A stretch of DNA of 64,000 bases from Candidatus Dormiibacterota bacterium (GTDB lineage Bacteria > Chloroflexota > Dormibacteria > Aeolococcales > Aeolococcaceae): positions 2,080,001-2,144,000 of the forward strand of contig OY970355.1 in the NCBI GenBank assembly GCA_963718525.1, read 5' to 3'. Position numbers and translations under genes: made by a program. The notes below the pieces were generated by a model. That model had not been told where the DNA came from. It made no database searches and saw nothing but the letters and a program-made list of their open reading frames with translations. Shown piece by piece: positions 21,760 through 62,303 of the stretch (the stretch's first letter is position 1; each line of letters begins with the position of its first letter).

Positions 21760-22653
21760 TTATCGACCGGCGGCAAGCCTGGCGTCGAGCACTTCGTAGG
21801 CAGGGTAGTTCAGCGAGGCCTCCATGTCCTCTCGGGTGGACATGCGATCGAGCAGCGAGGCCGTGGTGCCAGTATCGCGGATTGCGATGTACGCGTCCAT
21901 CTGGGCACGTGCGGCAAGTCGCATCGACGTGGTCGGCCAGATCACCATCTTGTAGCCCATCTCCTCCACCTGGGCAGCCGTGAAGGCGGGAGTCTGCCCG
22001 AACTCCGTGAGGTTCGCAAGGAGCGGTGCAGCAACACGTGTAGCGAACTCACGGAACATGGACTCACTCGTCAGCGCCTCGGGAAAGACCGCATCGGCGC
22101 CTGCGTCGAGGTAGCGAAGACTGCGTGCGATGGCTCCGTCGAGCCCCTCGCTCTCGAGAGCATCCGTACGGGCGACGATGACCATGTCCCGCCGTGCCAT
22201 CACGGCCGCCCTGATCCGGATCACCATGTCCTCCACCGTGGCCATGCGCTTGTCGCGCAGATGTCCGCACTTCTTGGGCAGGATCTGGTCTTCGATGTGC
22301 ACGGCAGCAGCGCCGGCATCCTCGAAGGCGCGAACCATGTAGGCGACGTTGAGCGCTTCGCCGTGCCCGGTATCACCGTCCACGAGCACCGGCAGATTGG
22401 TGGCGTGGACAACCTGCCGGATGAAGAAGCACACGTCGTCAATGGTGATCACCCCGACATCGGGCAGCCCCATCGACGCCGACATGGCGGCGCCGGACAG
22501 GTAGAGGGCTTCGAAGCCGGCATTCCTCGCCTGAATAGCGGCAAGGCCGTTGTGCGCACCCGGCATGAGCACGGCGCCGGGCCGCTCCAGCAACTGCCTC
22601 AAGCGGAGACCCAGCGAGCCCGTGGGCGTGACGAGACCGATGGAGTCGACCAT
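21760..22653 (-). CDS. prpB: Methylisocitrate lyase-like (ICL/PEP mutase family)
   Basis: YLSGAA, DGDTGHG, IEDQILPKKCGHL, ARTDA, ANLTEFGQTP. Confidence 0.85.
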   Translation of the reverse strand: MVDSIGLVTPTGSLGLRLRQLLERPGAVLMPGAHNGLAAIQARNAGFEALYLSGAAMSASMGLPDVGVITIDDVCFFIRQVVHATNLPVLVDGDTGHGEALNVAYMVRAFEDAGAAAVHIEDQILPKKCGHLRDKRMATVEDMVIRIRAAVMARRDMVIVARTDALESEGLDGAIARSLRYLDAGADAVFPEALTSESMFREFATRVAAPLLANLTEFGQTPAFTAAQVEEMGYKMVIWPTTSMRLAARAQMDAYIAIRDTGTTASLLDRMSTREDMEASLNYPAYEVLDARLAAGR

Positions 22654-22657
22654 GGGT

Positions 22658-22672
22658 CATATATCATATATA
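22658..22672. promoter_or_regulatory. Operator motif A (TATA-N3-TATA)
   Basis: CATATATCATATATA between divergent prpB and tartrate-dehydrogenase genes; contains minus-strand TATGAT. Confidence 0.65.
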
Positions 22673-22761
22673 AATCGAGTCCTGAGCTTCGTCCCCGACG
22701 AGCCGGGGTCATTGCGGCCGCCGAGATCCCTCGGCGCATCAGCACAGGGGTGATCTGAGGC

Positions 22762-23802
22762 ATGCAGCGGATTGCAGTCATCGCCGGAGACGGGATCGGC
22801 AGAGAGGTCGTGCCTGCCGGGATACGCGTGCTCTCGAGCGTGTGTGACCTCGATTTTCACGAGCTCGACTGGGGCTCTGATCTCTACCTGCGGACCGGCG
22901 CGATGATGCCTGACGACGGCCTCGAGGTACTCGATGACTTCGACGCCATCTACCTCGGTGCCGTGGGCGTCCCTCAAGTCCCTGACCACGTGACCTTGTG
23001 GGGGCTGCTGCTGCCGATTCGCAAAGCATTCGAGCTGTACGTCAACGTCCGGCCCGTCAACCTGCTGCGCGGAGTGCGGGGGCCACTGGCCGATCGCGGG
23101 CCCGAGGACATCGACATGCTCTTCATCCGTGAGAACACGGAGGGTGAGTACTCGGGCGCCGGTGGACGCGTCCATACCGGCACATCGCTGGAAGTCGCCG
23201 TGGAGGTGCCGGTATTTACGCGAGCCGCCATCGAGCGGACCGTGCGGTACGCATTCGACCGTGCGCGGGAGCGTTCCGGTTCGCTCACCAGTGTGACCAA
23301 GTCCAACGCGAGCCGGTACACCTATGTGCTCTGGGACCAGGTCGTCGAGGAGGTGCACCAGGAATACGCGGACGTCGTGCTGGATCGTGTCCTCGTGGAC
23401 GCGATGGCGGCGCGTATGGTGCTCCGACCCGACGCGGTGGACGTCGTGGTGGGCTCGAACCTGTTCGCCGACATCCTCACCGACCTCGGTGCTGCGCTGC
23501 AGGGCGGGCTCGGGCTCGCCGCGAGCGGGAACATCGATCCGAGCGGCCGCCATCCGTCGCTGTTCGAGCCCGTTCACGGGTCGGCACCGGACATCGCCGG
23601 ACAGGGAGTTGCCAATCCGATGGGCGCCGTCCTCAGCGGGGCGATGATGCTCCGTCACCTCGGCGAGGTCAACGCCGCGCAGCGTGTCGAAGCTGCCGTC
23701 GCCCTGGTCGTCGAACGCGGGGAGACGCTCACGCCGGATCTCGGCGGCACCGCGGGCACCTCCGAGGTCACCGAGGCGCTCATCGCCGCCCTCGCCACCT
23801 GA
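22762..23802 (+). CDS. Tartrate dehydrogenase / D-malate dehydrogenase (decarboxylating)-like
   Basis: GDGIGREV, VPDHVTLWGLLLPIR, RENTEGEYS, TKSNA, SNLFADILTDL, FEPVHGSAPDIAG. Confidence 0.85.
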   Translation: MQRIAVIAGDGIGREVVPAGIRVLSSVCDLDFHELDWGSDLYLRTGAMMPDDGLEVLDDFDAIYLGAVGVPQVPDHVTLWGLLLPIRKAFELYVNVRPVNLLRGVRGPLADRGPEDIDMLFIRENTEGEYSGAGGRVHTGTSLEVAVEVPVFTRAAIERTVRYAFDRARERSGSLTSVTKSNASRYTYVLWDQVVEEVHQEYADVVLDRVLVDAMAARMVLRPDAVDVVVGSNLFADILTDLGAALQGGLGLAASGNIDPSGRHPSLFEPVHGSAPDIAGQGVANPMGAVLSGAMMLRHLGEVNAAQRVEAAVALVVERGETLTPDLGGTAGTSEVTEALIAALAT

Positions 23803-23836: not shown

Positions 23837-25189
23837 CTAGGCCACCGCGACCCGGGTGCAGATCGCGCGGATCTCGTCGTCGGTCAAGGAGCGGCGGCGC
23901 ACGGTGGCGTCATCAACGATTGCCTGCCAGATGAGGGGAATCTTCTCCCGGTCGACGGTGATCCCAAGCTGATCCAGCTTGTCCTGGACCGTCCACATGC
24001 CGCTGGTTCTGTTGACGATCCACTCCTTCTCTGCGCCGACGAGTGACGGCTCGTAGGCCCAGTGGAGGAGGGGCTCAACCTTGAGCTCCTGGACGACGAT
24101 CTCGGTCCCTCCCCAGTTGTGCGCCCCGCGACCGGTGACGGCATGTGCGGCAGCGAGCTGCACACCGCTGATGTCCTCGACAAGGCGCGCGAGCGAATTC
24201 ATCTGATCGAGGTGAATGCCGGTGTGCACCCCATACAGCACCTCGAGGGCCGTCGCCATCTGGGCAAGGTCCACCTGACCGGCGGTCGCCGAGATTCCGT
24301 TGACCGAGACCTCGGTGACCTCCGCGCCGGCGTGTACGGCGGCGAGCGCGCACGCCACTCCCAGGCCGAACGCATTTCGGATGTACGTACCGATTCGACA
24401 TCCCGGTGCATACCGGCGAACCATGGACACGATGTGATTCCAGCCCTCGGGAGCGATCCCCGCGGCACCGTCCGAGAGCCAGATCTCGTCGACGCCTGCA
24501 GCATGCATCGCGGTGCAGTAGCGCTCGAGATGGTTGTCGTCCACAAGGGTGAGGAGGTTGATGCCGGTGCTCGCGCGCAGGCCGTGGAACCGGATGCGTG
24601 CGATCAACTGCACCCCGCGCTCGATCTCCTGGTCGAGTGTGGTGGGCACGCCCAGCGTGCGCCAGTCACCCCCCGCCCATGAGGTGCGATACGCCTCGGA
24701 CCAGTAGATCGGCGTTGCCTCGGGCAGCGCAGGCATCCAGAACTCGGCGAGGGTCACGCCCACCTCGGCGGCGATGTCGACCATAGCTTCGGTCTGGGTC
24801 GCGCCCATCTTGACGCCGAGATCCGGCCGTATCGATTTGAGATGGGTCACCTCATCACGCAGCGCCGCCGCCGACATGCCCCAGCCATGCGCGGACACCT
24901 CGATCTCGGGAACGCCCGCTTCGAGAAGCGCCTCGCCGAGGCGCCGGCGTTGCGCGCGGTCCACGGTGACGCCTGGCGTCTGCTCGATGACCCGCAACGT
25001 GATGTCGCGCAACGTCGTCGAGTGGGGATAGTGGTCCGGGAATGGTGCTCCGAGGACCGACGGATCCCGGTTGTATGGGCTCACCGCCCAGCGACCGGGT
25101 TCGAAGCTCCCCGGGCGCCGCCTGCGCGCGAATGCCTCCTGGATGTGTCGAACTTCGTCAGGCGTCAGATGCGGCGACGGTGCGGCCAC
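23837..25189 (-). CDS. LeuA/homocitrate-synthase-like DRE-TIM protein with altered catalytic motifs
   Basis: DITLRVIEQTPGV (canonical DTTLRDGEQ), YIRNAFGLGVA (canonical HxHNDxGLA), SVNGI, YEPSLVG; GGAGGAG RBS. Confidence 0.75.
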   Translation of the reverse strand: MAAPSPHLTPDEVRHIQEAFARRRRPGSFEPGRWAVSPYNRDPSVLGAPFPDHYPHSTTLRDITLRVIEQTPGVTVDRAQRRRLGEALLEAGVPEIEVSAHGWGMSAAALRDEVTHLKSIRPDLGVKMGATQTEAMVDIAAEVGVTLAEFWMPALPEATPIYWSEAYRTSWAGGDWRTLGVPTTLDQEIERGVQLIARIRFHGLRASTGINLLTLVDDNHLERYCTAMHAAGVDEIWLSDGAAGIAPEGWNHIVSMVRRYAPGCRIGTYIRNAFGLGVACALAAVHAGAEVTEVSVNGISATAGQVDLAQMATALEVLYGVHTGIHLDQMNSLARLVEDISGVQLAAAHAVTGRGAHNWGGTEIVVQELKVEPLLHWAYEPSLVGAEKEWIVNRTSGMWTVQDKLDQLGITVDREKIPLIWQAIVDDATVRRRSLTDDEIRAICTRVAVA

Positions 25190-25230: not shown

Positions 25231-26322
25231 TCAGCCGGCATCGAGTGCAGCCAGGACGGCTTTCGTCAGGCCTTCGGTGGTCGCGGTCCCGCCTAGGTCA
25301 GGCGTGCGTGTGTCGCCCGACGCGAGCGTTCGCGCAATTGCCGAGTCGACATCGTCTGCCACGGCTATCAGGTCGGGCTCTCCGTGCACTCTGCTGAGCC
25401 AGCGCAGCAGCAGCGAACCGGAAAGGATCTCGGCGATGGGATTGGCGATGCCCATGCCGGCGATGTCGGGTGCGGATCCATGCACGGCCTGCGCCATGGC
25501 GTGATCATCACCAATGTTCAACCCCGGGGCGAGACCCAGGCCGCCGACGAGTCCGGCCGCCTCGTCGGAGAGGATGTCGCCGAACATGTTCGTGGTCACC
25601 ACCACGTCGGCGACCTCGGGGCGGAGGATGAGGCGCATCGCGAAGGCATCGACCAGAAAATCATCGAACGCGATGTCTGGATTCTCGGCCGCGACATCAC
25701 GGCAGCACTCGAGGAAGAGGCCGTCGCCGCGGCGGAGCACGTTGGCTTTGTGCACGCACGTGACCTTTCGAAGTCCGTCACGCTCGCGAGCAAGTGCGAA
25801 CGCCTGGCGCGCGACCCGCATGCTCGCGCGCCGCGTGACCAGACGCACCGAGATCACCGTGTCCAGGTCGGGGCGGAGCTCGCCGTTGCCGTCGAGCATG
25901 TTGCGATCGGCGTAGAAGCCCTCGGTGTTCTCGCGGACGATCACCACATTCATATCGGGGTGCACGCATTCGACGCCGGGCCAGCCGCGCGCCGGGCGTA
26001 CGTTGGCGTACAGCTCGAAGTTCTTGCGCAGGTACCCGCTGGGGTTCACATAGCGCGCGTCACCCATGGGGTAATCACGATGAGAGACCGGCCCGAGAAT
26101 CCACCCCGGGATATCGGGAAGGGCTTCCCGCGTGCGGATCGGCAGCGTGCTCCCCTCGCTGTCAACCGAAGCCACCCCGGCCGGCAGCGGCACCCACGCG
26201 ATGTCGACGGCGTGCCGCTTCGCGGCGTGGTCGAGGATGCGAGTCGTCGACCGGACGATCTCCGGGCCGATGTCATCGCCCTCCATCACGGCGATCCTCA
26301 CCGGCGAGGTCTCGCCATTCAT
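25231..26322 (-). CDS. Isocitrate/isopropylmalate dehydrogenase family protein
   Basis: EGDDIGPEI, NPSG.LRK.F.LYANVRP, RENTEGFY, HKANV, NMFGDILSDE, HGSAPDIAG. Confidence 0.9.
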   Translation of the reverse strand: MNGETSPVRIAVMEGDDIGPEIVRSTTRILDHAAKRHAVDIAWVPLPAGVASVDSEGSTLPIRTREALPDIPGWILGPVSHRDYPMGDARYVNPSGYLRKNFELYANVRPARGWPGVECVHPDMNVVIVRENTEGFYADRNMLDGNGELRPDLDTVISVRLVTRRASMRVARQAFALARERDGLRKVTCVHKANVLRRGDGLFLECCRDVAAENPDIAFDDFLVDAFAMRLILRPEVADVVVTTNMFGDILSDEAAGLVGGLGLAPGLNIGDDHAMAQAVHGSAPDIAGMGIANPIAEILSGSLLLRWLSRVHGEPDLIAVADDVDSAIARTLASGDTRTPDLGGTATTEGLTKAVLAALDAG

Positions 26323-27263
26323 CCGCGTGGTGCGGCCGCCGGCACGACCCGGCGAGAGTTGGTCACTGCCATCGTGCACACCTCGCTTTCGGTGAAGCCC
26401 GCCTCGAGAAAACGATCTGCCATCAGCGCCATCCCATCTTCAACCGGCGGATTGTGCGGCTGGCCGAGATCGCTGGAGAACAGCGAGTGTTCAGTCCCGG
26501 CCGCGCGCACGTTCGCAAACAGCGCCTCCCAGCTGATGCGCCCGCCGTGCGGCGTTCCGAAGCATCGCTCCAGAAGACACCCGCGGTCGCCGAGCGCGCG
26601 CTGCTGCTCGGGCGCAAGTTGCTGCGAAGGGAAATCAGGGTGGGTGATGACGATTCGCTCCACGCCGGCCTCCTGTGCCGCGATGACCACGGGCAGGATT
26701 TCGTCACCGCCGAGATGCCCCGTGCAGAGCACGAGGTCGTGCTCCGCGACGAGCTCGAGGACGGTGTGCACCTCGGGGAGAACCTTTCCACCGGCATCAA
26801 TCATCCTGATCGGGGGCGGGCTGATGCCCTTCGCCTGCAGGTGATTCTTGAGCGCGAGCCAGCCCGGGGGGGTTCCCTGGCCGGCCGCTTCAGCGGCGTG
26901 CGCCTCGTTGATGGAATCGAAGGTCGGGAGCCACACGAACTTCCCGCCGCTGCGCGCGCAGATCTCCACTGCAACGGGGTTCACACCGCCCACAGGCCAG
27001 TTCAACGTGACCGCTCCGATCACCTCGACACCGGACGTGGCCTGCACGAGTGCGGCACGCTCCGCGGTCATCGTGTAGTGGGATTTGAGGACAAAACCGC
27101 CCAGCCCGAGTTGACTGAAACGCGCCGCCAGGCTGACGTCGTCGATGCGACGCTGCAGCACATCGGGAAGCACGTGAACGTGGAGGTCGTAGGCGCCCTG
27201 AAGGAGTTCTCGTGCTCGGTTTGAGGGGACCGGATGTGACTGCGCCTCCGCCTCACCCGCCAT
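26319..27263 (-). CDS. Amidohydrolase-fold protein (DUF6282-like)
   Basis: GAYDLHVH..PD, LKSHY, WLPT, TGHL, ITHP, SSDLGQ. Confidence 0.8.
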   Translation of the reverse strand: MAGEAEAQSHPVPSNRARELLQGAYDLHVHVLPDVLQRRIDDVSLAARFSQLGLGGFVLKSHYTMTAERAALVQATSGVEVIGAVTLNWPVGGVNPVAVEICARSGGKFVWLPTFDSINEAHAAEAAGQGTPPGWLALKNHLQAKGISPPPIRMIDAGGKVLPEVHTVLELVAEHDLVLCTGHLGGDEILPVVIAAQEAGVERIVITHPDFPSQQLAPEQQRALGDRGCLLERCFGTPHGGRISWEALFANVRAAGTEHSLFSSDLGQPHNPPVEDGMALMADRFLEAGFTESEVCTMAVTNSRRVVPAAAPRG

Positions 27264-28731
27264 CGGCGGTGGCCTTCGATGCAGCACTGGCCTCGCCAAC
27301 GGCACCGGCTTGTGGCACGGTCAGCGCCATGAGCGCGCGTACATCGGGCGCATCCCAGGCACCCTCGAGCGCCGTCAGCAATTCGCCGGTCTGTTCGTCA
27401 CCAAGGCTCGGACGGACATTGCCACGGAACTTGCGCCGATGGTCCGCCGGCAGCATGGGATTGAGCCTGGTGCCGCGCTGGGCGGGCACGTCTTCCTCAA
27501 AGACCCGGCCGTCCACCGTCGTCAGGCGTACGCGAGCGGGGAAGGTGTCCGGAAGCATCGATGGATCCGCGTGGCAGAACACACGCGCAGCGAAATCGCG
27601 GATCTCCTGGTTGGCGAGCGTGGTCTCGTTGTAATCGTCGACCTCCACCGAGCCGAGCACCACAAGCATGGCCACGGAGTACTGGAGGCTGAACTTCATG
27701 TGATAGAGCGAGCGAGGGTTCAGCTTTGCGTCTCGAGGTTCGCAGACGAGCGGGATGCAGATCGGCGGCACGTAGCAGTCGATTCGGTCGACATCGCTGG
27801 TGGACAGGCCCTCGCGCTCGAGGATGGCCACGGTGCCGTCCATCGAGGCGTGATTCCACACGCCGTTTGGCCAGGGCTTGTAGGTCGTGTCCGGCAGGAT
27901 CCACCGCACTCCGAGACCGTCCGTGATCTGATCGAACTGGAAGGTCTCCTCGTCACCGTGCAGGAGTGCATTGAAGAACCCGAACTTCCCCTCGATCACC
28001 TCATGCGGGCCGGTGAACCCCTCGGCCGCGAGTTGCGCACACGTGATGCCGCCCTGCACCCCCCAGCCGGGATGGAGCTGCTTGACCCAGCTTCCGTCAA
28101 TCAAGGTCTGCATGAGGCCGGAGGACCTGCTGCCGGCCATCCCGAGCGCATTGGTCGTGGCCTCCTCGTCGAGGTTCATGAGCTTCGCGGCAATCGCAGC
28201 CGCGGCGAACGGGCCGGCGACACCGGTGCCATGGAGTCCACGATGGTGAAACTGGTGTGGGGGAGCCCCTGTGTTGATGCGCAGCGCGAGTTCCGCACCC
28301 GTCGCCATCGCCACGAGGCATTGGGCTCCGGTGGAGCCGGCAGCCTCAGCTGCAGCTAGAGCTGCCGGCACGGCGACGGAGCTGATGTGGACGGCTGCGA
28401 CGCCGTGCATGTCGTCGTAGTCGGCGCCGTGGCCCACAGCACCATTCACCCAACCCGTGAGCGGCGCGGGGAATCGACTCCCGAACACCATGCTGGTGGA
28501 TTCCGGCGTGCCACCTGACTTAATTGCCACTTTGTGGATGATGCCGGCCGATGCCGAGCGTGACCCGGCAATGCACACGCCGACCTGGTCGACGAGTCGC
28601 CAGCGGATATCGTCGGCCACGTCCGCGGGAAGGTCGGTGGCATCGACACCGACCGACCAGCGCGCGAGCTGTTCGGAGATGGTGCTCGTCGGTCGCGGAA
28701 CCCCGTTCGAGGGAGAGGCGTCTTGGCTCAC
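27253..28731 (-). CDS. MmgE/PrpD family protein (1)
   Basis: HGADYDDMH, HISS, GLHGTG, KQLHPG, YKPWP, KFSLQY. Confidence 0.92.
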   Translation of the reverse strand: MSQDASPSNGVPRPTSTISEQLARWSVGVDATDLPADVADDIRWRLVDQVGVCIAGSRSASAGIIHKVAIKSGGTPESTSMVFGSRFPAPLTGWVNGAVGHGADYDDMHGVAAVHISSVAVPAALAAAEAAGSTGAQCLVAMATGAELALRINTGAPPHQFHHRGLHGTGVAGPFAAAAIAAKLMNLDEEATTNALGMAGSRSSGLMQTLIDGSWVKQLHPGWGVQGGITCAQLAAEGFTGPHEVIEGKFGFFNALLHGDEETFQFDQITDGLGVRWILPDTTYKPWPNGVWNHASMDGTVAILEREGLSTSDVDRIDCYVPPICIPLVCEPRDAKLNPRSLYHMKFSLQYSVAMLVVLGSVEVDDYNETTLANQEIRDFAARVFCHADPSMLPDTFPARVRLTTVDGRVFEEDVPAQRGTRLNPMLPADHRRKFRGNVRPSLGDEQTGELLTALEGAWDAPDVRALMALTVPQAGAVGEASAASKATADGG

Positions 28732-28735
28732 CGGC

Positions 28736-28750
28736 AATATATCCTATATT
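28736..28750. promoter_or_regulatory. Operator motif A (TATA-N3-TATA)
   Basis: AATATATCCTATATT inverted repeat between two divergent MmgE/PrpD genes. Confidence 0.7.
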
Positions 28751-28872
28751 AAACGCTGCGGCGATCGCCCCGGGAAGCACCCCGGTCGTACCATGTCCAC
28801 GGCGGCGCGGAGGGAGTTTGCGTGACCCAGGAGTTTATGAGCGCGAGACGACAACGAGTGGAGGACGGCCCT

Positions 28873-55531: not shown

Positions 55532-56332
55532 TCAGCCGCTCGCGAGCACCGGCCGCAGGTCCGCGAGGAGCTGCTCGGCGACGATCTGAAAGATGAAGTT
55601 GACTCCCTGCAGCATGATCATCCGGACGCCGCGCTCGTGCAGCATGATCACGCGCTTGCGCATCTCGTCCAGCGTGTATGCGTAGCTGGTGTTTGCGCCA
55701 ATGGTGACGCCATGTCGGCGCCCAAGCTCGACAGCACGATCCACGTATTCCCAGAGCCGTTCGTTGTAGAAGTCGGGCTGTTCCGAGTCCGAGATGATGC
55801 GTGATGCATCGCTCATCGCGATGAACACGATGTGGATCTCGGGATCCGCGATGATCTCTTCGAGCGAGTCGAGACCGCCCTGAGTCTCCGGCTGCGGAAT
55901 CACGTAGGAGCGACCTTGATGTGCCGGCTCCGACCGTCCCTCAGCGCTCTCGCGACCGCGATGTATGACCAGGCCCTTGCGATGCCAGTCGCGTGCCGCC
56001 ACCACGCACTCGTCGATCTCACGCTTCTCTGAGTGCGACACCAGCATGAACTGCGCCCCAACGCCGATCGCACGCGCGACGTCGGGCGCGATCCGGTGGT
56101 CGTAGCCGAGCCATGGGTTGCTCTGAATTCGCACGACGGGTGTGATCTCAGCGGCTTCAGCGGCGGTGATCAGCGCAGACGTCTGATGCCAGTCATGCGA
56201 GCTGAACATCTGGTCGATCATCACCCATCGAAAGCCGACGTATCCGCAGAGGTCGACCATGTCTGCGCTGTTGACCCAGAGACCGAGGCTCGTTCGTCCC
56301 GCCTCGAGATCCTCGAGCAGTGGATTGCGCAC
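55532..56332 (-). CDS. HpcH/HpaI class II pyruvate aldolase-like protein with altered motif
   Basis: LGLW, WVMIDQMF (canonical IDxEH), VVR, QPET, AMSD; AGGAGG RBS. Confidence 0.75.
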   Translation of the reverse strand: MRNPLLEDLEAGRTSLGLWVNSADMVDLCGYVGFRWVMIDQMFSSHDWHQTSALITAAEAAEITPVVRIQSNPWLGYDHRIAPDVARAIGVGAQFMLVSHSEKREIDECVVAARDWHRKGLVIHRGRESAEGRSEPAHQGRSYVIPQPETQGGLDSLEEIIADPEIHIVFIAMSDASRIISDSEQPDFYNERLWEYVDRAVELGRRHGVTIGANTSYAYTLDEMRKRVIMLHERGVRMIMLQGVNFIFQIVAEQLLADLRPVLASG

Positions 56333-56405
56333 GTGATGCCTCCTGGGGCACCGCCCTTAAAGCAGGTGGCCGGGCGTGGTACCGAGCCGGTGACCCCGGC
56401 TCTTG

Positions 56406-56420
56406 TGGAATACTATTCCA
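56406..56420. promoter_or_regulatory. Operator motif B (TGGAAT-N3-ATTCCA), IclR-like
   Basis: Perfect inverted repeat TGGAATA-C-TATTCCA covering TACTAT (+) and TAGTAT (-) -10-like hexamers between divergent operons. Confidence 0.75.
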
Positions 56421-56500
56421 ACAATGGCGGCTTTTGCACCGTGCCACGTTCGCGCACGGAGACCGGCCGGCAGCACCATCTCGGTGCCGGTGACCACGCG

Positions 56501-57856
56501 GTGAAGCTGCTGGCGGCGACCGGGATGCTCGGCTCGGGCTTCCTCGAAAGCTCGATCGCTCGAGGCGTCGATGAGGGCGCGGCGATGATCGGCTGCGACT
56601 CCGGGACGACCGACTTCGGACCCCATCTTCTCGCCACCGGGCGCTCGCATTTCTCTCGGTCCTCGGTCAGGAGGGACCTGGGGATCATGATCGAACACGC
56701 GCGTCGCACAAGGATTCCGGTGGTGATCGGCTCGGCCGGCGGGTCGGGAAGTGACTCCGGGGTTGCATGGATGAGCGACATCGTTCGCGAGATCGCGGAC
56801 CAACTCGGCCTGCACTTCAGTCTCGCGCAGATCCATGCCGAGCAGCCGGCGCACGTGATCCGCGAGCTGCTGGCGCAGGGCCGGGTGCGCGCGCTGCCGC
56901 GTATGGGGGAACTCACTGGCGAGGACGTCGATTCCTCGTTGCACATGGTCGCCATGATGGGTGCGGAGCCGATCCAGGAGGCACTGTCGCGGGGGGCTGA
57001 CGTTGTTGTCGCAGGGCGGGCGAGCGACGCCTCCATCTTTGCGGCGCTCCCGCTGCTTGCAGGCCACGATCCGGGGCTGTGCTGGCATGCGGGGAAGATT
57101 CTCGAATGTGGCGCCGCCGCCGTCGTGCAGCGCACCGCGCCGGACAGCATGCAGGCAGAGATGCACGCGAGCGGTGTCGACATCGAGCCGCTGCGCCCTG
57201 ACTACCGCTGCACGCCCCAGAGCGTCGCGTCACATACGCTGTACGAGAACGCGGACCCGTTCAACCTCATCGAACCGTCAGGTGTCCTCGATACGCTCCA
57301 GACACGATATGACGCCATCTCGGATCGCGCGGTTCGCATCTCAGGGTCCAGGTTTCACGAGGCAGCCGAGTACACGGTCAAGCTGGAGGGCGCGCGAAAG
57401 GTTGGCTACTCGACCGTCATTCCCGGCGCCATTCGCGATCCGCTGATCATCAACCAGCTCGACGCCTGGTTGGCGACGCTCGACGCGGCGATCACCGCGC
57501 GTCTTCGACAGACGCTCACACCCACGGACACGTACACGATCGCGACTCGCGTCTACGGGCGAAACGGAGTGATGGGGGAGCTCGAGCCTGTCCCACGGGT
57601 CGAGGGCCACGAGGTCATGCTGCTCTGGGATGTCATCTCCGGATCACAGGAGCTCTCGCATTCGATCGCGGCCGCCCTGACGCACATGGCGGCGCACAAT
57701 CCGATCCCGGAATGGCATGGACTGATCAGCGGGGTGGCGTTTCCCTTTGCTCCGTCTGAGATTGACCGCGGGCCGGTGTACGAGTTCCACCTCAATCACG
57801 TGATCGTTCCCGAATCCCCGACCGCGCTGTTTCCGATCGACATGACGGTGGTCTGA
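56501..57856 (+). CDS. Acyclic terpene utilization AtuA family (DUF1446) protein; start uncertain
   Basis: TGMLGSGF, I.CDSG.TD.GP..L, IGSAG..G, V.MMG.EP, AGRASD, WH.GK..ECG, HTLYEN.DP, VKLEGA. Confidence 0.85.
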   Translation: MKLLAATGMLGSGFLESSIARGVDEGAAMIGCDSGTTDFGPHLLATGRSHFSRSSVRRDLGIMIEHARRTRIPVVIGSAGGSGSDSGVAWMSDIVREIADQLGLHFSLAQIHAEQPAHVIRELLAQGRVRALPRMGELTGEDVDSSLHMVAMMGAEPIQEALSRGADVVVAGRASDASIFAALPLLAGHDPGLCWHAGKILECGAAAVVQRTAPDSMQAEMHASGVDIEPLRPDYRCTPQSVASHTLYENADPFNLIEPSGVLDTLQTRYDAISDRAVRISGSRFHEAAEYTVKLEGARKVGYSTVIPGAIRDPLIINQLDAWLATLDAAITARLRQTLTPTDTYTIATRVYGRNGVMGELEPVPRVEGHEVMLLWDVISGSQELSHSIAAALTHMAAHNPIPEWHGLISGVAFPFAPSEIDRGPVYEFHLNHVIVPESPTALFPIDMTVV

Positions 57857-57857
57857 C

Positions 57858-58196
57858 GTGCGCAGGCCTCTCGGCGAGCTGGCGAAGCTCATCAGATCGA
57901 AGAATGCAGGCCCGTTCTGGCTCACCTTTGATGTGATGTTCGACGACCCGGAGATCTACCGCCAGGTGCGTGACCAGCAGGTGCTCAGCGTGGAGCGCGT
58001 CGCAGCCTGCTATCGGCAGGATCCGTCGTCGGTCCTCGTGTTTGCCCATGACACCGCGCTTGCGATCAAGGTCAGCTTTCCGCGACCTGTGAGCTCCGGA
58101 TCGGCGCGGGACACCGACGTGTTCGGCGGCCAGCAATACGCCCCGCTGATGGACTTCACAGTCGAGCTCAGCGGCGGTAGTGCGACGACGTCGTAG
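57858..58196 (+). CDS. DUF4387 family protein
   Basis: LA..IRSKNAGPF.LTFD.MF, AIK.S.PR, D.DV.GGQQ..PL. Confidence 0.88.
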   Translation: MRRPLGELAKLIRSKNAGPFWLTFDVMFDDPEIYRQVRDQQVLSVERVAACYRQDPSSVLVFAHDTALAIKVSFPRPVSSGSARDTDVFGGQQYAPLMDFTVELSGGSATTS

Positions 58197-59016
58197 GTCG
58201 GATCGCCGAAGCTGACCGATCCAGGACCTGGGAGACCTCACCCGCCGCTGCCAGCAGATCCGGAAGCCACGCCTCAAGCCGCTCGAGGGTGCAACGCTCC
58301 GCAGGCCCGGCAATGGTGAGGGCGGCCGCGATGCTCCGATCCGGACCGAGTATCGGCGCCGAAACCGCGTCGATACCCTGGACGTGGGAGGACTGCGCGA
58401 GTGCGTATCCCTCGGAGGCAATCGTCTCGACACGGCGTACGAGGACGGCGCGCGATGGTATCGCCGGGTCCAGCTTGCGGAGCTGTGCCAGGTGGCTCCA
58501 GTACGCGCGACGGTCGGGCTCCGCGGCGTACGCCAGAAGGAGCTCGCCGGTCACGCCGCTGTGGAGCGGCGCGAGTTGCCCGATCTGCGCAACCCATCGA
58601 ATCTCATGAGTCCCTTCGACTGCTTCGATGCAGACGCGCTCGAAACCCGTCTGGACGTTGAGCGTGATCGTCTCGGCGGTCAGATCACGCAGACGGAGCA
58701 TGTACGGATACACCACGCCGCGGAGGTCCGCGCGTGAGTTCATCTGACGGAACAGCGTGAGCATCCGCCAGCTCAGCGCATATCGCTGAGTCTCCGGGTG
58801 CTGGTCGACGAGCTGCTTGCGGCGCAACGCGGTGAGGATGCGATGGATGGCGCTTCCGCTCGCCTTGGTTTCGCGCGCAAGCTCGGTGACGCTCAGCGAT
58901 CCCGTGTCCGTCTGGGCGAGCAGCAACAGGATCTCTGCAGCGCGCTCCACCGCGAGCGCGGACGCACTTCGTTCAAGCGCCGGCTCGGCGTCGGCAATCG
59001 CGACCGCCGCCTTCAT
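58168..59016 (-). CDS. IclR-family transcriptional regulator
   Basis: AVERA..IL..L, S.TELA, .HRIL..L, ETITL, PLH.G..G, GYA, AVSAPI. Confidence 0.92.
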   Translation of the reverse strand: MKAAVAIADAEPALERSASALAVERAAEILLLLAQTDTGSLSVTELARETKASGSAIHRILTALRRKQLVDQHPETQRYALSWRMLTLFRQMNSRADLRGVVYPYMLRLRDLTAETITLNVQTGFERVCIEAVEGTHEIRWVAQIGQLAPLHSGVTGELLLAYAAEPDRRAYWSHLAQLRKLDPAIPSRAVLVRRVETIASEGYALAQSSHVQGIDAVSAPILGPDRSIAAALTIAGPAERCTLERLEAWLPDLLAAAGEVSQVLDRSASAIRPTTSSHYRR

Positions 59017-60164
59017 ACGCCAGGCTCGGTGGGTGTGACGCTTTCCAGCCACTGACGGCACGCCCCGAGGAATGACGATGCCTGCAGGCCGTCCATCACC
59101 CGGTGATCAAGGCTGAGGCTTAGATACATCATCGGCCGCACCTCGGCTTTGCCGTTGACTGCGACGGGGCGATCCACAACCGAGCCCATGGTGATCACCG
59201 CGGATTGTCCCGGGGCGATCACCGAGTAGCTCAGCAATGTGCCAAGGGAACCGGAGTTGTTGACGGTGAAGGTTCCGCCGGAGAGATCCGCCGTCACCAG
59301 CTGTCGTGCGCGGGCACGAGCCGTGAGATCCCCGAGCGCTACCGCGAGCTCCGGAATCGAGAGGCGATCGGCGTTCTTGATGACCGGTACGATCACGCCC
59401 TCCGGCAGCCCCATGGCGACGCCGATGTTGATCGCGCGATGAACGATGATGCCGTCCTCGGAGAACGTCGAGTTGACCTCGGGGAATTTGCGCAGCGACG
59501 CCGCGGCTGCGGCCACCATGTACGTCAGGTATGAGAGCGACACGCCGTACTGGCGGCGCACCGTGCCGCGATTCACCTTCAGACCTCCGCCGACTGCGCT
59601 CATATCGACTTCCTGCATCTGCCACGCATGCGGGATGGTCGCTTTCGACAGCGCCATGCGCTCCGCGATGCGGCGACGCGTCGGAGTCAAGGGAATGACT
59701 TCGTCGCCTTCGAGTGACTGCGGGGGCGCGACAACGGTCGCCGGACCCGACGCTGCCCGCCGATGGGGAGGAGTTGGCACGTCTGGCTGCTGCGCGACCA
59801 CCTCTGGCACCGAGGAGTCATCGGCCGCATCGGATTGAGCAACCGCCTGCTGCCGTGCCGGAGGAGCCGCCGGGGTCGCCGGGACTTCGATGGTCGCCAC
59901 GTCGATGTCACCACCTGCGGCGCCGTTGACCTCCAGGACAGCGATGTCCGCTCCGACAGGGACCACCGCCCCCTCCGCTGCGAGGATTTCCGTGAGCACG
60001 CCGGTGACCGGAGCCGGCACTTCTGCGTCGACCTTGTCAGTGTTGATCTCGACCATGGCGTCGAACTCCGCAACCCGGTCTCCAGGATTAACCAGCCAGC
60101 GTGAGATGGTGCCCTCGGTTACGGATTCGCCGAGTTGCGGCATGGTGACCAGGTAGCGGCTCAT
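59013..60164 (-). CDS. 2-oxoacid dehydrogenase E2 (dihydrolipoamide acyltransferase), no evident E3-binding domain
   Basis: MPQLGESVTEGT..W...TDKV lipoyl domain; GGTFT..N.G, DHR..DG catalytic motif. Confidence 0.92.
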   Translation of the reverse strand: MSRYLVTMPQLGESVTEGTISRWLVNPGDRVAEFDAMVEINTDKVDAEVPAPVTGVLTEILAAEGAVVPVGADIAVLEVNGAAGGDIDVATIEVPATPAAPPARQQAVAQSDAADDSSVPEVVAQQPDVPTPPHRRAASGPATVVAPPQSLEGDEVIPLTPTRRRIAERMALSKATIPHAWQMQEVDMSAVGGGLKVNRGTVRRQYGVSLSYLTYMVAAAAASLRKFPEVNSTFSEDGIIVHRAINIGVAMGLPEGVIVPVIKNADRLSIPELAVALGDLTARARARQLVTADLSGGTFTVNNSGSLGTLLSYSVIAPGQSAVITMGSVVDRPVAVNGKAEVRPMMYLSLSLDHRVMDGLQASSFLGACRQWLESVTPTEPGV

Positions 60165-61246
60165 CGTCCTTCCTCCTTGGCTGTTTCTGCGCGTTGCTGC
60201 TCGATGCGAGTGGGCAGAACGTCGTACACGTGCTGAAAGATGTAATCGGAATCCGGCCGCGGGAGCGCCGATGCCGCTTTCTGTGCGGCATCGAGCTCGA
60301 GCCGGATCTCTGCTTTGAGAGCTTCGACATCGACTTCCGTCAACAGGCCGTGCGCGATCACATACCGTTCCACGCGGGCCAGCGGATCATTCGCGACCGC
60401 CGCCGCCACCTCGGCCTGGTGACGGTAGTCATTCGGGTTGTCCGAGGTGTTGTGAAAGCCAACTCGGTATGTCCGGCATTCGATGAGGGTCGGCCCCCCG
60501 CCTGCAAGGGCGCGGGTCACGGCTTCGTGGGATGCGGCGTACACCGCGAAGAGGTCGTCCCCGTCCACCACGACGCCGGGCATCCCGTATCCGAGCGCTC
60601 GGGAGGCGAGACTCGCCGCCGCGGTCTGTTTGTGAAATGGGGTCGAGATGGCGTACTGGTTGTTGATGACAACGATGACGAGCGGGACGCGCATCACCCC
60701 GGCAAGGTTCAGCAACTCGTGGAAATCGCCCTCCGAGGAAGCCCCGTCGCCGCAATAGACCATGACCGCTGCGTGCTCGTGGCGTAGCTTCATCGCCCAG
60801 GCCAACCCCGCGGCGTGCGGTAGCTGCGCGCCGATGGCCTGCTGCCGAGGCAGCAATTTGACGCCTTGCGGGATTCCCGCATGGTTCAGGCGCCCCATGT
60901 ATCCGGCGAAGAAATTGATCAGGGGAAGCCCGTGCCGGATCATGGCCGGCTGTTCGCGCGATGCGGGCACCATCCAGTCCCGGTCTGGGTCGAGCGCCAT
61001 CGCGGATCCGACAACGGCTGCCTCCTGCCCGTGCACCGGGGCGTAGAGACCGACACGTTTCAGGCGTTGGAGCTTGGTGGCCAGGTCGTCGATGGCTCGG
61101 GACTGGATCATGAGCCGGTATGCCTCGAGGATCTGATCCCTGCGCATCGGCACGGCGCCATCCACCTGGCCGTCGGGATTGAGGGGCTGCAGGGGAACCA
61201 CCGCGTGGTTGCCGGGTCCGGCCGTCACGGCGGGTTGGCGCGCCAT
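60161..61246 (-). CDS. 2-oxoacid dehydrogenase E1 alpha (PDH/BCKDH type)
   Basis: GQEA, GDGASSEGDFHE..N...NNQYAIS TPP motif, YR...H.TSD. Confidence 0.93.
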   Translation of the reverse strand: MARQPAVTAGPGNHAVVPLQPLNPDGQVDGAVPMRRDQILEAYRLMIQSRAIDDLATKLQRLKRVGLYAPVHGQEAAVVGSAMALDPDRDWMVPASREQPAMIRHGLPLINFFAGYMGRLNHAGIPQGVKLLPRQQAIGAQLPHAAGLAWAMKLRHEHAAVMVYCGDGASSEGDFHELLNLAGVMRVPLVIVVINNQYAISTPFHKQTAAASLASRALGYGMPGVVVDGDDLFAVYAASHEAVTRALAGGGPTLIECRTYRVGFHNTSDNPNDYRHQAEVAAAVANDPLARVERYVIAHGLLTEVDVEALKAEIRLELDAAQKAASALPRPDSDYIFQHVYDVLPTRIEQQRAETAKEEGR

Positions 61247-62271
61247 CAGCCTTCCACAGCCTTTCGTACGGCGCTGATGATGCGTGGGACGGTCGGAAGC
61301 CACGCGTCTTCGAGCGCACCCGGGGGATAGGGCACATCGCGTCCGCCAACGCGGAGCACTGGGGAATCGAGTGACATGAACGCCTCCTCGTGGAGGGTGG
61401 CCGAGATCTCGGCACCGAATCCGCCGGTGAGCGGCGCCTCGTGCACGACCACCGCTCGTCCCGTGCTCGTCACTGCATGAACCAGCCCGTCGACATCAAG
61501 GGGGACCAATGTTCGAATGTCGAGCACCGCTGCCGAGATGCCGCTCGAATCGAGCTCGGCGGCCGCGGCGAGGCAGAGATGCACGGCTGCTCCCCACGCG
61601 ATCAGGGTGACGTCGGAACCCTGGCGCACGAGACGAGAGCGTCCGAACGGCAGCGGATCGTCGCGCACGGTGACTGGTCCTCTGACGGTGCGATACAAGC
61701 GCTGGGGCTCGACGAAGAGCACCGGATCGGGGTCTCGGATCGCCATGCTCAGCATGTTCCGCGCGTCGTCGGGGAACGCCGGACACACGATCTTGATGCC
61801 CGGGGTTTGCGCGAACTGCAACTCGACCGCGTCGGCATGGAACTCCGGGGTCCGAACGCCACCCCCGTCAGGCGCGCGAATGGTCACGGGCATCGGATAG
61901 CGGCCGCGCGATCGAGAGCGGAATCGCGCGAGCTGTGGGCCGACCTGATGAAAGGCCTGATACGTGAAGCCGAGAAACTGAATCTCCGGCACCGGAATCA
62001 TGCCCCCGATTGCGAGGCCCACCGATGCGCCGACAATGCTCGCCTCGGCCAGCGGGGTGTCGAAGACGCGATCGACGCCGAAGCGCTGTTGCAGTCCCTG
62101 GGTGACGCGAAACACGCCACCAAGTGTCCCCACGTCCATGCCGAAGACCACGACACGCTCGTCGCGCGCCATCTCCTCAAAGAGAGCGGCACGGATCGCC
62201 TCGAGGATCGACATCTCCTCGGTGGCCGGCGCCGCCTTTGCCTGGTGCACCACGGTCTGGACATCCGTCAT
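61246..62271 (-). CDS. 2-oxoacid dehydrogenase E1 beta
   Basis: DVG..GGVFR.T.GL, RVFDTPLAE, EIQF, DPV.F.EP, VHEA, GFGAEI. Confidence 0.93.
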   Translation of the reverse strand: MTDVQTVVHQAKAAPATEEMSILEAIRAALFEEMARDERVVVFGMDVGTLGGVFRVTQGLQQRFGVDRVFDTPLAEASIVGASVGLAIGGMIPVPEIQFLGFTYQAFHQVGPQLARFRSRSRGRYPMPVTIRAPDGGGVRTPEFHADAVELQFAQTPGIKIVCPAFPDDARNMLSMAIRDPDPVLFVEPQRLYRTVRGPVTVRDDPLPFGRSRLVRQGSDVTLIAWGAAVHLCLAAAAELDSSGISAAVLDIRTLVPLDVDGLVHAVTSTGRAVVVHEAPLTGGFGAEISATLHEEAFMSLDSPVLRVGGRDVPYPPGALEDAWLPTVPRIISAVRKAVEG

Positions 62272-62288
62272 GGGGTTGCTCCCAATAT

Positions 62289-62303
62289 TGGAATGCCATT
62301 CTA
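62289..62303. promoter_or_regulatory. Operator motif B overlapping the -10 of the E1beta-E1alpha-E2-iclR operon
   Basis: TGGAATGCCATTCTA; the minus strand begins TAGAAT. Confidence 0.7.

Follow-up and report, generated by a model that had tools for sequence, protein, structure and literature searches.

The itaconate/methylsuccinate cluster of Pseudomonas aeruginosa and Cupriavidus necator comprises Ict, Ich, Ccl, a methylsuccinyl-CoA dehydrogenase and an MmgE/PrpD-type methylsuccinate isomerase (PMC12290011), and its logic is that a C5 branched dicarboxylate is converted to a CoA ester, hydrated and split to acetyl-CoA and pyruvate. The MmgE/PrpD functions known so far are 2-methylcitrate dehydratase, cis-aconitate decarboxylase, iminodisuccinate epimerase and methylsuccinate isomerase, all of which act on a 1,4-dicarboxylate backbone (PMC12290011). 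Further described systems are the 3-hydroxypropionate bi-cycle of Chloroflexus and Roseiflexus (Mcl-Mch-Mct-Meh) and the haloarchaeal methylaspartate cycle, the ATP-dependent lactamases (5-oxoprolinase, N-methylhydantoinase and CapAB, described as a two-subunit ATP-dependent caprolactamase; PMC8453981), and the gallate/protocatechuate-4,5 lower pathway with LigI, oxalomesaconate hydratase and HMG/CHA aldolase (for the role of the aldolase, see PMC5065237). At the level of control, NanR of E. coli is described as a GntR-type repressor that binds a (GGTATA)3 tandem repeat (10.1101/2020.04.22.056440). The stretch analysed here, hereafter the window, comprises 64,000 nucleotides of contig OY970355.1 from a Candidatus Dormiibacterota bacterium. 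A natural unit at 20537-62271 (42 kb) holds 39 contiguous catabolic, transport and regulator genes, and is read here, with somewhat better than even confidence, as an accessory, GntR-repressor-controlled catabolic island for one or a few related branched polycarboxylic acids.

Within this unit (positions are those of the window, followed by the strand), ten strand-coherent units, two regulator genes and two importers of different classes were observed. The original prediction had counted about 36 genes in one block at 21760-62303; the block is indeed contiguous, while the count in that range is 38, and a third isocitrate-dehydrogenase-family (Iso_dh) gene lies just left of its start (20537-21628). 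The final gene set consists of Pfam-validated open reading frames (ORFs). The Pfam scan covered 98 ORFs of at least 160 aa from position 16977 onward, and 44 chosen proteins were scanned against NCBIfam with curated equivalog cut-offs applied, followed by additional Pfam and NCBIfam scans. All predicted families were found in place. Only the methylisocitrate lyase PrpB (21760-22653, minus; TIGR02317, 383.4 vs a cut-off of 354.4) and a tartrate dehydrogenase/decarboxylase (TTC; 22762-23802, plus; TIGR02089, 482.1 vs 470.4) exceeded their cut-offs, with the remaining enzymes falling well under theirs.

The distribution of the block was determined among 42 genomes of the genus, including the window genome, G000, which is a single contig of 3.34 Mb with a marker completeness of 88.9%. 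G-numbers denote the genomes searched, 400 of which were drawn from the phylum-level group to which the organism belongs, and L-numbers denote fetched loci or contigs: 80 genome loci with HydA as anchor, and metagenome contigs with DUF6282 as anchor. L022/L111 and L023/L139, probably the same populations as G042 and G021, were not counted as independent, and G027 was counted in tallies only and supports no claim. When its leftmost and rightmost 20 kb served as DNA queries, the whole block was found to be collinear in three of the 42 genomes, G000, G021 (91-92% nucleotide identity) and G042 (78-79%). G005 holds a partial block, and the other 38 genomes gave only short matches, of up to about 0.9 kb among the matches listed. 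Searches with tblastn on the fetched contigs confirmed that G021 and G042 are collinear gene by gene from citrate synthase to E1 beta, the exception being the short aldolase, for which no match covering at least half its length was found in G042.

In G020 the order is gltA, 2-hydroxyacid dehydrogenase, 3.2 kb of other sequence, orf62824 and CoxB, whereas the same flanks lie 42 kb apart in the window; IsoDH_a, the leftmost gene of the insertion/deletion, falls within the segment that G020 lacks. A single chromosomal site is thus polymorphic for the presence or absence of the whole IsoDH_a to E1 beta stretch, in agreement with the predicted contiguous accessory block. No tRNA, flanking repeats or deviant G+C content were found (the island ranges from 0.63 to 0.675 against 0.663 for the genome, and the window is 64-67% throughout), nor did the Pfam scan return an integrase or transposase family, so the block is not a classical mobile island. 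By tblastn against the whole genome, the island represents 1.3% of the sequence but carries three of the five MmgE/PrpD and three of the five Iso_dh genes, as well as the sole genome copies of PrpB, HydA and HydB, RraA, the LeuA-like protein, DUF6282, the long lyase and the flavoprotein. The clustering of these families in the island exceeds chance.

A shared AT-rich element was observed in the intergenic regions of this approximately 66% G+C genome, in the form of tandem repeats with the consensus CCTATAT-CCTATAT and the core TATATNNTATAT. The repeat unit is 7 nt (CCTATAT), and each of the four promoter regions has two to three copies of it. Operator-like site 1 (CATATATCATATATA, 22658-22672) lies in the divergent PrpB/TTC promoter region and site 2 (AATATATCCTATATT, 28736-28750) in the divergent PrpD1/PrpD2 region, where the second repeat forms the -10-like hexamer TATATT for PrpD2. 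The divergent control region between the FAH gene and the gene of the importer's binding protein (40429-40712) contains a half-site (CCTATATTAT, 40429-40440, minus) that overlaps a -10-like TATATT beside the FAH start, tandem site 3 (CCTATATCCTATATT, 40543-40557), which abuts the -35 hexamer TTGACA (40563) of the importer operon promoter TTGACA-17-TATTCT, a degenerate copy (CCTATTTCCTATTC, 40577-40590) that covers the spacer and -10 of that promoter, and a conserved 5' leader. Site 4 (CCTATAGTATATAAG, 53782-53796), with one mismatch, lies upstream of orfX.

The core TATATNNTATAT occurs at only three loci in the 3.34-Mb genome, all of them island promoter regions (sites 1-3). When one mismatch was allowed, four loci were found in the window (seven overlapping matches on both strands) against 0.03 matches expected from shuffles. 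A weight matrix placed the next-best genome match at 17.6 compared with 23-29 at the island sites, although it was trained on those sites and is circular in this respect. The genus scan is a less circular test, and here the pattern was found only in G000, G021 and G042, at three orthologous promoters, and in none of the other 39 genomes. The sites are intact in G042 although the nearby intergenic DNA is strongly diverged, and site 4 is also kept in G021 and G042. Further afield, a variant, CCTATAGAATATAT, is located directly upstream of FAH in G005, and another, AATATGATATATTTCATTGAC, upstream of the binding-protein gene on the metagenome contig L112.

Seven units carry the element in their promoter regions and account for 30 of the 39 genes, from 20537 to 53797. 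These are PrpB-IsoDH_a, in which IsoDH_a is probably downstream of PrpB in one unit; TTC; PrpD1-DUF6282-IsoDH_c-HMGL; PrpD2; FAH-HydA-HydB-lyase-CoAT1-GntR-PrpD3-RraA, the longest operon, which encodes GntR; SBP-LivHMGF-FADox-MFS-MLE-MT; and orfX-cupin-CoAT2-HD-SnoaL. With one cis-element in common, these 30 genes are very likely co-regulated. The element is missing from the spacer between the short aldolase (HpcH_S) and AtuA and from the region upstream of E1, that is, from the right-hand 8.5 kb with CoAT3-MaoC-aldolase, AtuA-DUF4387 and IclR-E2-E1. Given this and the separate palindrome of the E1 operon, the predicted co-regulation is upheld for the 30 genes and not as one 40-kb regulon.

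The candidate binder is the GntR/FCD regulator of the longest operon (32432-33175, minus; PF00392 and PF07729). The GntR gene and the element co-occur in G000, G021, G042, G005 and L112, and L024 and L026 are without both. As in the part of the NanR regulon described, a GntR-family regulator is combined with short AT-rich tandem direct repeats that overlap catabolic promoters; the island differs in that its repeat is 7 nt, CCTATAT, and in that GntR binding is predicted only. We infer that the element would be the operator of the island GntR, acting as a repressor that is released by the substrate or an intermediate. The AT-rich sites lie 0-6 nt from the annotated starts of PrpB, PrpD1 and FAH (22651-22675, 28731-28750 and 40420-40440), leaving no room for a ribosome-binding site. 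These three operons may give leaderless mRNAs, or their true starts may be a few codons downstream.

The hydantoinase/oxoprolinase subunits HydA (37502-39556, minus; PF01968, PF05378 and PF19278; CapA 487.7 vs 1000) and HydB (35724-37505, minus; PF02538; CapB 250.4 vs 1000) have CapA (E 5e-146) and CapB (3e-74) as their best NCBIfam matches, ahead of acetophenone carboxylase subunits. The two genes overlap by 4 nt and are flanked directly by the long lyase and by the FAH-family gene (39553-40428, minus; PF01557; HpaG C-terminal model 188.5 vs 276), which heads the long leftward operon; a gene for a small third (gamma) subunit would not fit in. Two subunits encoded by overlapping genes and no small subunit are features shared with the ATP-dependent lactamases. 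Unlike these, HydAB scores at no more than half of the cut-offs, is accompanied by no aminotransferase and is always coupled to a FAH-family gene. Among HydA relatives of less than 50% identity, mostly from Betaproteobacteria, FAH is directly upstream in 61 of the 74 proteobacterial loci with enough upstream sequence and HydB directly downstream in 70 of 70, and the long lyase is present in none of them. Two annotated loci of this group (L027-L101), L036 (8019-16837) and L101 (7841-17535), provide the wider context, LysR followed by FAH-HydA-HydB-CobW-transporter (MFS or TctC)-porin. As FAH-HydAB recurs in proteobacterial loci without the long lyase, it is a self-contained, widespread two-step module.

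The second module is formed by CoA-ester enzymes. The family-III CoA-transferase CoAT3 (53798-55066, minus; TIGR04253, 464 vs 725) matches the solved Mct structures 8apq and 7xkg over its full length with 446-449 bits, the next solved relative following at 93 bits, and by sequence it falls in the mesaconyl-CoA C1-C4 transferase (Mct) clade. These solved relatives presumably come from filamentous anoxygenic phototrophs. The adjacent single-domain MaoC hydratase (55002-55529, minus; 175 aa) is Ich/Mch-like (RipB_Ich, NF038241, 206.6 vs 340), has beta-methylmalyl-CoA dehydratase as its closest solved relative (127 bits) and spans only positions 20-168 of the 353-position MC_hydratase model. The long malyl/citramalyl-CoA-lyase-like protein (34475-35824, minus; 449 aa) carries an HpcH_HpaI/DUF6986/malate-synthase barrel. 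It scores 67.7 vs 500 with the malyl-CoA lyase model and 58 vs 375 with RipC_Ccl (NF038242); its closest solved relative is the malyl-CoA lyase 4l9y (64.7 bits), and its similarity to malyl-CoA/beta-methylmalyl-CoA lyases, CLYBL and RipC, the nearest proteins, is only distant. It also matches, at about 44 bits, 4l7z and 6kin, which are titled HpcH/HpaI aldolase and which we take to be Chloroflexus Mcl. CoAT1 (33273-34568, minus; PF02515) is closest to succinate-glutarate transferase (249 bits) and succinyl-CoA:mesaconate transferase (239), both under the cut-offs, and CoAT2 also has succinate-glutarate and succinyl-CoA:mesaconate transferases as its best matches. None of the three CoA_transf_3 proteins reached any curated cut-off, and no Ict model matched. 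Together with the best matches of CoAT1 and CoAT2, the CoAT3/MaoC/lyase set points to itaconate/methylsuccinate and Mcl-Mch-Mct-Meh chemistry, in which hydration of a branched C5 dicarboxylyl-CoA precedes its cleavage. A C5-acyl-CoA cleavage back end, as predicted, is well supported at the level of sequence, by the Mct clade of CoAT3 and by the position of MaoC next to the long lyase in all five other genomes of the phylum-level group that hold the lyase.

This back end raises the question of whether the island is simply a known itaconate/methylsuccinate cluster combined with the methylcitrate cycle and tartrate utilisation, diverged in a remote phylum. CoA_transf_3, a RipB/Ich-like MaoC, a CitE/Mcl-like lyase and MmgE/PrpD are indeed the families of the Pseudomonas/Cupriavidus cluster (PMC12290011), L024 shares with that cluster an acyl-CoA dehydrogenase, and PrpB and TTC pass their equivalog cut-offs. 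However, Ich and Ccl were not recognised at the curated level (206.6 vs 340 and 58 vs 375), and PrpD scored at most 55.7 vs 950. The Pfam scan of the window found no Acyl-CoA_dh family member, the family expected of a methylsuccinyl-CoA dehydrogenase, and no PrpC, AcnD/aconitase-family or PrpF gene was found among the scanned ORFs. The neighbouring gltA passes the citrate-synthase equivalog (598.7 vs 505) and fails cit_synth_II (342.6 vs 421.3). The lyase is set apart by its 449 aa, N-terminal extension and DUF6986/malate-synthase-like signature, an Mct-type intramolecular transferase is added, and the genes are spread over three units. HydAB, FAH, DUF6282, Iso_dh, LeuA-like and RraA, which surround the module in the island, are foreign to the known cluster. 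PMC12290011 moreover describes methylsuccinate isomerases as almost confined to Pseudomonadota and always located beside the dehydrogenase. This explanation is considered very improbable. The original prediction that the set was neither the itaconate nor the 3-hydroxypropionate pathway was nevertheless worded too strongly, for although the full set maps to neither, the back end is homologous to modules of both.

The least probable of the readings weighed is an assimilatory one, in which a glyoxylate/propionyl-CoA route akin to the second 3-hydroxypropionate bi-cycle would be encoded, with PrpB, Iso_dh and the LeuA-like protein as anaplerotic side reactions. A published reclassification groups Dormibacteria with Chloroflexota (PMC10608941). 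CoAT3 is closest to solved Mct, and CoAT3, MaoC and the lyase have their nearest relatives among the bi-cycle and haloarchaeal methylaspartate-cycle enzymes. The island hydratase, however, is a 175-aa single domain in contrast to the approximately 350-aa double hot-dog Mch/Meh type, the lyase is distant (65 bits), and no other bi-cycle genes turned up in the Pfam scan of the window. The context differs as well, the block being accessory (three or four of 42 genus genomes), linked to two importers and putatively under a substrate-type repressor, which is not the setting of an autotrophic cycle.

The third group comprises enzymes for free acids. The three MmgE/PrpD proteins, PrpD1 (27253-28737, minus), PrpD2 (28822-30273, plus) and PrpD3 (31005-32405, minus), were assigned by Pfam and score 55.7, 26.4 and 30.9 vs 950 with the PrpD equivalog NF042438, the only PrpD model matched. 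They fit none of the described MmgE/PrpD functions at the equivalog level, and the closest solved relative of PrpD1 is iminodisuccinate epimerase (122 bits). The two MmgE/PrpD genes outside the island (G000:C1:710194-713385 and 2344148) are the closest paralogues of PrpD2 (64%) and PrpD1 (55%), and the first of them lies 3 kb from a TTC paralogue (57%), which suggests a smaller sister cluster elsewhere in the genome.

Two dehydrogenase-like proteins accompany PrpB and TTC. IsoDH_a (20537-21628, minus; PF00180; NF006529, 378 vs 510) is isocitrate-dehydrogenase-like and IsoDH_c (25231-26379, minus; PF00180; TIGR02088, 305 vs 409.8) is isopropylmalate/homoisocitrate-dehydrogenase-like. An isocitrate-dehydrogenase-like gene that 39 of the 42 genus genomes carry shares 80-84% identity with IsoDH_a. 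G021 (C35) and G042 (C13) hold both that widespread gene and the island copy, and G000 has the island copy only and no monomeric isocitrate dehydrogenase; in G000 IsoDH_a may therefore have taken over the housekeeping role. The divergent HMGL-like (LeuA/NifV-like) protein (23837-25189, minus) matches PF00682 partially, with a best NCBIfam score of 145 vs 517 and homocitrate synthase as its closest solved relative (79 bits).

An RraA-like class II aldolase/decarboxylase (30245-31018, minus; PF03737) and a DUF6282 metallo-hydrolase of the amidohydrolase superfamily (26319-27305, minus; PF19799; start probably 27263) recall the gallate lower pathway. This pathway also combines an RraA-fold aldolase with an amidohydrolase-superfamily enzyme, and its intermediates are oxalo-substituted citramalate and mesaconate, whose carbon skeletons are shared with the CoA module of the island. 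GalB belongs to the PIG-L family. In contrast to that pathway, the aldolase reaches only 67.9 vs 304.5 with the LigK model (ligK_PcmE, TIGR02798), MmgE/PrpD proteins stand where a hydratase would be expected, and no ring-cleaving dioxygenase, PIG-L or LigJ family was found in the island by the Pfam scan.

The original prediction had named an amidohydrolase. The superfamily barrel is confirmed by a structure model (pLDDT 88) whose Foldseek matches are lactonases, decarboxylases and phosphotriesterases (TM 0.5-0.59), and the family is corrected to DUF6282. Across 23 sequences, seven positions (H, H, K, H, H, H and D) do not vary; the PDB sequence search returned nothing for this protein, and the protein atlas DUF6282 clusters only. 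Homologues outside the island lineage (about 53-61% identity), located on high-GC soil contigs (L114-L181, e.g. L125, 9321-13261), lie in a constant operon, GntR/FCD-DUF6282-PIG-L-RraA-like-glyoxalase-type dioxygenase. Among loci with at least 3 kb downstream of DUF6282, PIG-L and the dioxygenase are each present in 28 of 28 and the RraA-like gene in 26 of 28, and a GntR/FCD gene is adjacent in 27 of the 42 loci with upstream sequence. This operon looks like a gallate-type lower or ring-cleavage pathway, the likely pathway setting for the DUF. In six actinobacterial-type GntR-DUF6282 loci checked, no TATAT-type element was found upstream of GntR.

Taken by gene families, the set is not one characterised pathway, as had been predicted, PrpB and tartrate dehydrogenase being the only proteins found above curated cut-offs; it combines a conserved FAH-HydAB-lyase-transferase core with a mesaconyl/citramalyl-CoA back end and citrate-like free-acid enzymes. 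We infer the class of substrate and the order of reactions as follows. One compound, or a few related branched polycarboxylic acids, would enter through the ABC system and the MFS carrier, and the HydAB-type ATP-dependent enzyme and FAH would act as an activating front end, either by opening a ring or amide or by activating an enol for subsequent C-C hydrolysis or decarboxylation. The three MmgE/PrpD proteins, the amidohydrolase, Iso_dh, LeuA-like, RraA-type aldolase and PrpB would then carry out isomerisation/(de)hydration, hydrolysis, oxidative decarboxylation and aldol or lyase cleavage of citrate-, citramalate- or oxalomesaconate-like acids. CoAT1 and CoAT2 could convert a C5 acid of the mesaconate, itaconate or citramalate type to its CoA ester, Mct would shift the CoA from C1 to C4, MaoC would hydrate the product and the long lyase would split it. 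The lyase products would be acetyl-CoA and pyruvate or, alternatively, propionyl-CoA and glyoxylate, which would explain PrpB, and a pyruvate-dehydrogenase-like E1/E2 would carry the 2-oxoacid onward.

The originally predicted lactam substrate is possible, favoured by the CapAB likeness of HydAB and weakened by the missing aminotransferase and ammonia-lyase, unless ring opening gives an enamine from which ammonia is lost without an enzyme or the flavoprotein carries out the deamination. Developed further, the island could encode an as yet undescribed pathway for N-heterocyclic or lactone/lactam polycarboxylates from decaying plant or lignin matter, with HydAB opening a stable cyclic amide with ATP. 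Candidates would include pyridone- or pyrrolidone-di- and tricarboxylates, nitrogen analogues of 2-pyrone-4,6-dicarboxylate. The enamine would lose ammonia spontaneously, which would explain the missing aminotransferase, FAH and MmgE/PrpD, in place of aconitase- or PIG-L-type hydratases, would process an unsaturated oxo-tricarboxylate, RraA- and PrpB-type lyases and the Mct/MaoC/lyase module would finish the route, and GntR would read the tandem CCTATAT sequence as a new operator. This more specific proposal is regarded as doubtful.

Partial synteny at 57-73% protein identity was found in G005, L024, L026, L112 and G375, so that conserved synteny, the absence of which would have contradicted the original prediction, is present. 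G005, L024 and L026 (60-67% identity) retain FAH-HydA-HydB-long lyase-CoAT1. In G005, MaoC-CoAT3 lies directly beside GntR-CoAT1-lyase-HydB-HydA-FAH, and the AtuA-DUF4387 pair is also retained. L024 and L026 show the order (orfX)-RraA-PrpD, MaoC and acyl-CoA dehydrogenase-FAH-HydA-HydB-lyase-CoAT1-MFS, their additions being a divergent MaoC, the acyl-CoA dehydrogenase ahead of FAH, the upstream RraA-MmgE/PrpD, the MFS carrier and a DAO oxidase; in L024 an orfX homologue (4156-4818) lies upstream of RraA-MmgE/PrpD. L112 (60-73% identity) carries HydB-lyase-CoAT1-GntR-PrpD3-PrpD2-PrpD1-DUF6282-IsoDH_c-HMGL followed directly by SBP-LivH, and lacks TTC, PrpB and RraA among the shared genes. The long lyase occurs in five other genomes of the 400, adjoined by MaoC in all five. 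G375 shows lyase-CoA-transferase(2-like)-MaoC-CoA-transferase(3-like), G277 has E2/E1 beta/E1 alpha near MaoC and lyase, and in G375, G229, G317 and G277 the lyase-MaoC-transferase set is present without HydAB. Judging from these gene orders, lyase, MaoC and CoA-transferases form the oldest unit, which gained HydAB/FAH within Dormibacteria and, in the window's own lineage, the importer genes together with those for MmgE/PrpD, DUF6282, Iso_dh and the LeuA-like protein. As the lyase, MaoC and transferases occur together in relatives, the CoAT3-MaoC unit is functionally tied to the regulon despite having no element.

The same distributions bear on whether the island is instead a mosaic, a catabolic warehouse in which several independent short organic-acid pathways share one variable site and one broad regulator or common promoter type. 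The candidate pathways would be those for tartrate or D-malate (TTC), methylisocitrate from propionate (PrpB), C5 dicarboxylates (the CoA module), the HydAB/FAH substrate and a 2-oxoacid (E1/E2). Such an arrangement would fit the ten strand-coherent units with two regulators and the two importers of different classes, and PrpB and TTC, the sole proteins to pass curated cut-offs, belong to different known routes. It would also fit FAH-HydAB standing alone with a transporter in the 61 of 74 proteobacterial loci (the transporter being annotated in L036 and L101), the lyase-MaoC-transferase sets without HydAB, the lack of TTC, PrpB and RraA in L112 and the unmatched short aldolase in G042. Against this, one genome-unique element serves seven units, the HydAB-lyase-transferase core is linked to PrpD-type genes, RraA, MaoC and orfX across 57-73% identity, and the presence of MmgE/PrpD, Iso_dh and CoA-transferase in three paralogues each within one regulon points to consecutive conversions of related intermediates. 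The mosaic is a serious competitor and still judged rather unlikely.

The preferred reading remains a repressor-controlled island serving one branched polycarboxylic acid or a few related ones, and several points weigh against it. The sequence pattern was defined after the sites had been seen, so its chance figures are post hoc, and the three carrier genomes are close kin, whose agreement does not amount to three independent observations. With its -10-like TATAT hexamers, the element could be an unusual promoter for leaderless leftward transcripts and not a repressor site; promoter scoring gave nothing of the sigma-70 type at sites 1 and 4. IclR, or a regulator with its gene outside the island, could be the binder. 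The nine genes of the right-hand 8.5 kb lack the element. Most enzymes fall far under the family cut-offs, so that their reactions are guesses, and the DUF6282 homologues elsewhere belong to a different, aromatic-type operon. No aminotransferase, ammonia-lyase or acyl-CoA dehydrogenase gene was found in the window by the Pfam scan, which constrains lactam and methylsuccinate routes. The sub-modules are distributed differently, as seen in L112 and in the short aldolase of G042, so several substrates fit as well as one, and a single linear pathway is not supported.

Uptake would be served by two systems. The ABC importer (40713-45430, plus; assigned by Pfam, all NCBIfam scores under cut-offs) consists of a Peripla_BP_6 binding protein (SBP, 40713-41981), two LivH/M-type permeases (42084-42923 and 42923-43909) and two ATPases (about 43930-44727 and 44720-45430). 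In the PDB sequence search, the binding protein matched Leu/Ile/Val-binding homologues only. The 5' leader of its gene, about 120 nt (40592-40712), shows conservation among G000, G021 and G042 far above that of the rest of the intergenic region. Its folding was no better than that of shuffles (z 0.20), no obvious counterpart was visible by eye in the L112 leader, and Rfam gave no match at gathering thresholds across the whole window, the FAH/SBP region yielding only a chance microRNA match (E 2.1). The second importer is an MFS organic-anion transporter (46950-48186, plus; PF07690; start approximate). Between the two lies a FAD_binding_2 flavoprotein, TcuA-like/flavocytochrome-like (45473-46897, plus; TcuA, NF006130, 162.5 vs 369), and for tricarballylate utilisation no TcuB-like gene was found among the scanned ORFs. 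For tartrate/D-malate utilisation, the tartrate dehydrogenase/decarboxylase is recognised.

Downstream of the MFS carrier are an MR/MLE-superfamily enzyme (48235-49456, plus) and a class I SAM methyltransferase (49465-50274, plus), which scores 69 vs 320 with the trans-aconitate methyltransferase model. The predicted Tam-like and fumarate-reductase-like identities of the methyltransferase and the flavoprotein accordingly hold at the family level and not at the curated level. The MR/MLE protein is one gene whose Pfam N- and C-terminal halves fall on two ORFs, the reading frame being split by one extra T near 48939 (region 48926-48990). Its orthologues are intact in G021 (426 aa) and G042 (421 aa). 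The extra base is missing from contigs of all four sequencing runs checked, from two studies, one of which runs may be the source sample; with the intact orthologues, this identifies the frameshift as a one-base assembly error and rules out a pseudogene.

The leftward unit at 50293-53748 contains, all on the minus strand, a SnoaL-like protein (50293 to about 50850), an HD-domain protein (50808-51359), CoAT2 (51356-52600), a cupin (52578 to about 53000) and orfX (53014-53748; 244 aa), which lies between the cupin and CoAT3, directly downstream of operator-like site 4, and has no family match in Pfam or NCBIfam. In the right-hand part, the short HpaI-like class II aldolase (55532-56332, minus; PF03328; HpaI 46 vs 369) has no match to the RipC_Ccl model. 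It is followed by a pair formed by an AtuA-like protein (about 56405-57856, plus) and a DUF4387 protein (57858-58196, plus). The last unit (58168-62271) encodes the IclR regulator (58168-59061, minus) and a pyruvate-dehydrogenase-like 2-oxoacid dehydrogenase with E2 (59013-60164, minus), E1 alpha (60161-61303, minus; PDH_E1_alph_x, 374.7 vs 411) and E1 beta (61246-62271, minus); no E3 gene is present in the E1/E2 region of the island.

Upstream of E1 beta, a palindromic element (CCAATATTGGAATGCCATTC, 62282-62301) forms a separate operator-like sequence and is a candidate IclR operator. Its core, TAGAATG(G/C)CATTCCA, is kept in G000, G021 and G042, and the genome has just two copies of GAATGCCATTC. 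A motif common to the right-hand side was considered and rejected, since the 8-mers that the HpcH_S/AtuA spacer has in common with the sequence upstream of E1 form only one 10-nt stretch, TGATGCCTCC, and the TATAT element is missing from both. An inverted repeat, ATTGGCGCCCAAT, at 33208-33230 in the 97-nt gap between CoAT1 and GntR, occurs nowhere else in the genome and may serve GntR as an internal promoter or operator.

On the left, the island is flanked by citrate synthase (gltA), two ChrA halves and 2-hydroxyacid dehydrogenase, and on the right by the small ORF orf62824 and CoxB. The two adjacent half-size ChrA genes (18267-19408) lie between citrate synthase and 2-hydroxyacid dehydrogenase; in G020 these two are directly adjacent, with no ChrA between them. 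Positions 1-16947 of the window carry unrelated sugar and peptide uptake genes, with a LacI regulator and an Opp-type ABC transporter with a family-5 binding protein, and additionally a GH3 glycosidase, a radical-SAM/B12 protein and a glyoxalase.

Repressor-controlled catabolic islands assembled from known enzyme families are a familiar type of system; the combination, operator and probable pathway of this one are not described. In the literature, the supplementary lists of PMC12290011 not being covered, no description of the gene set and no link of Dormibacteria to these enzymes was found. Little is known of the carbon sources of Dormibacteria, uncultured bacteria that are abundant in soil and permafrost, and the island represents a defined unit in them, with a regulator gene, a candidate operator, a binding protein and about 30 enzymes under putative common control. 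It joins 'dark' families, namely MmgE/PrpD, DUF6282, the extended CitE-like lyase, AtuA/DUF4387 and FAH-coupled hydantoinase-type enzymes. If the MmgE/PrpD proteins do replace aconitase-type (de)hydratases, the known chemistry of that family would be widened, and if the doubtful route from N-heterocycles were true, a function would be defined for FAH-HydAB in a widespread betaproteobacterial operon. One solved substrate would annotate many genes, including the FAH-HydA-HydB operon found in 61 of 74 proteobacterial loci.

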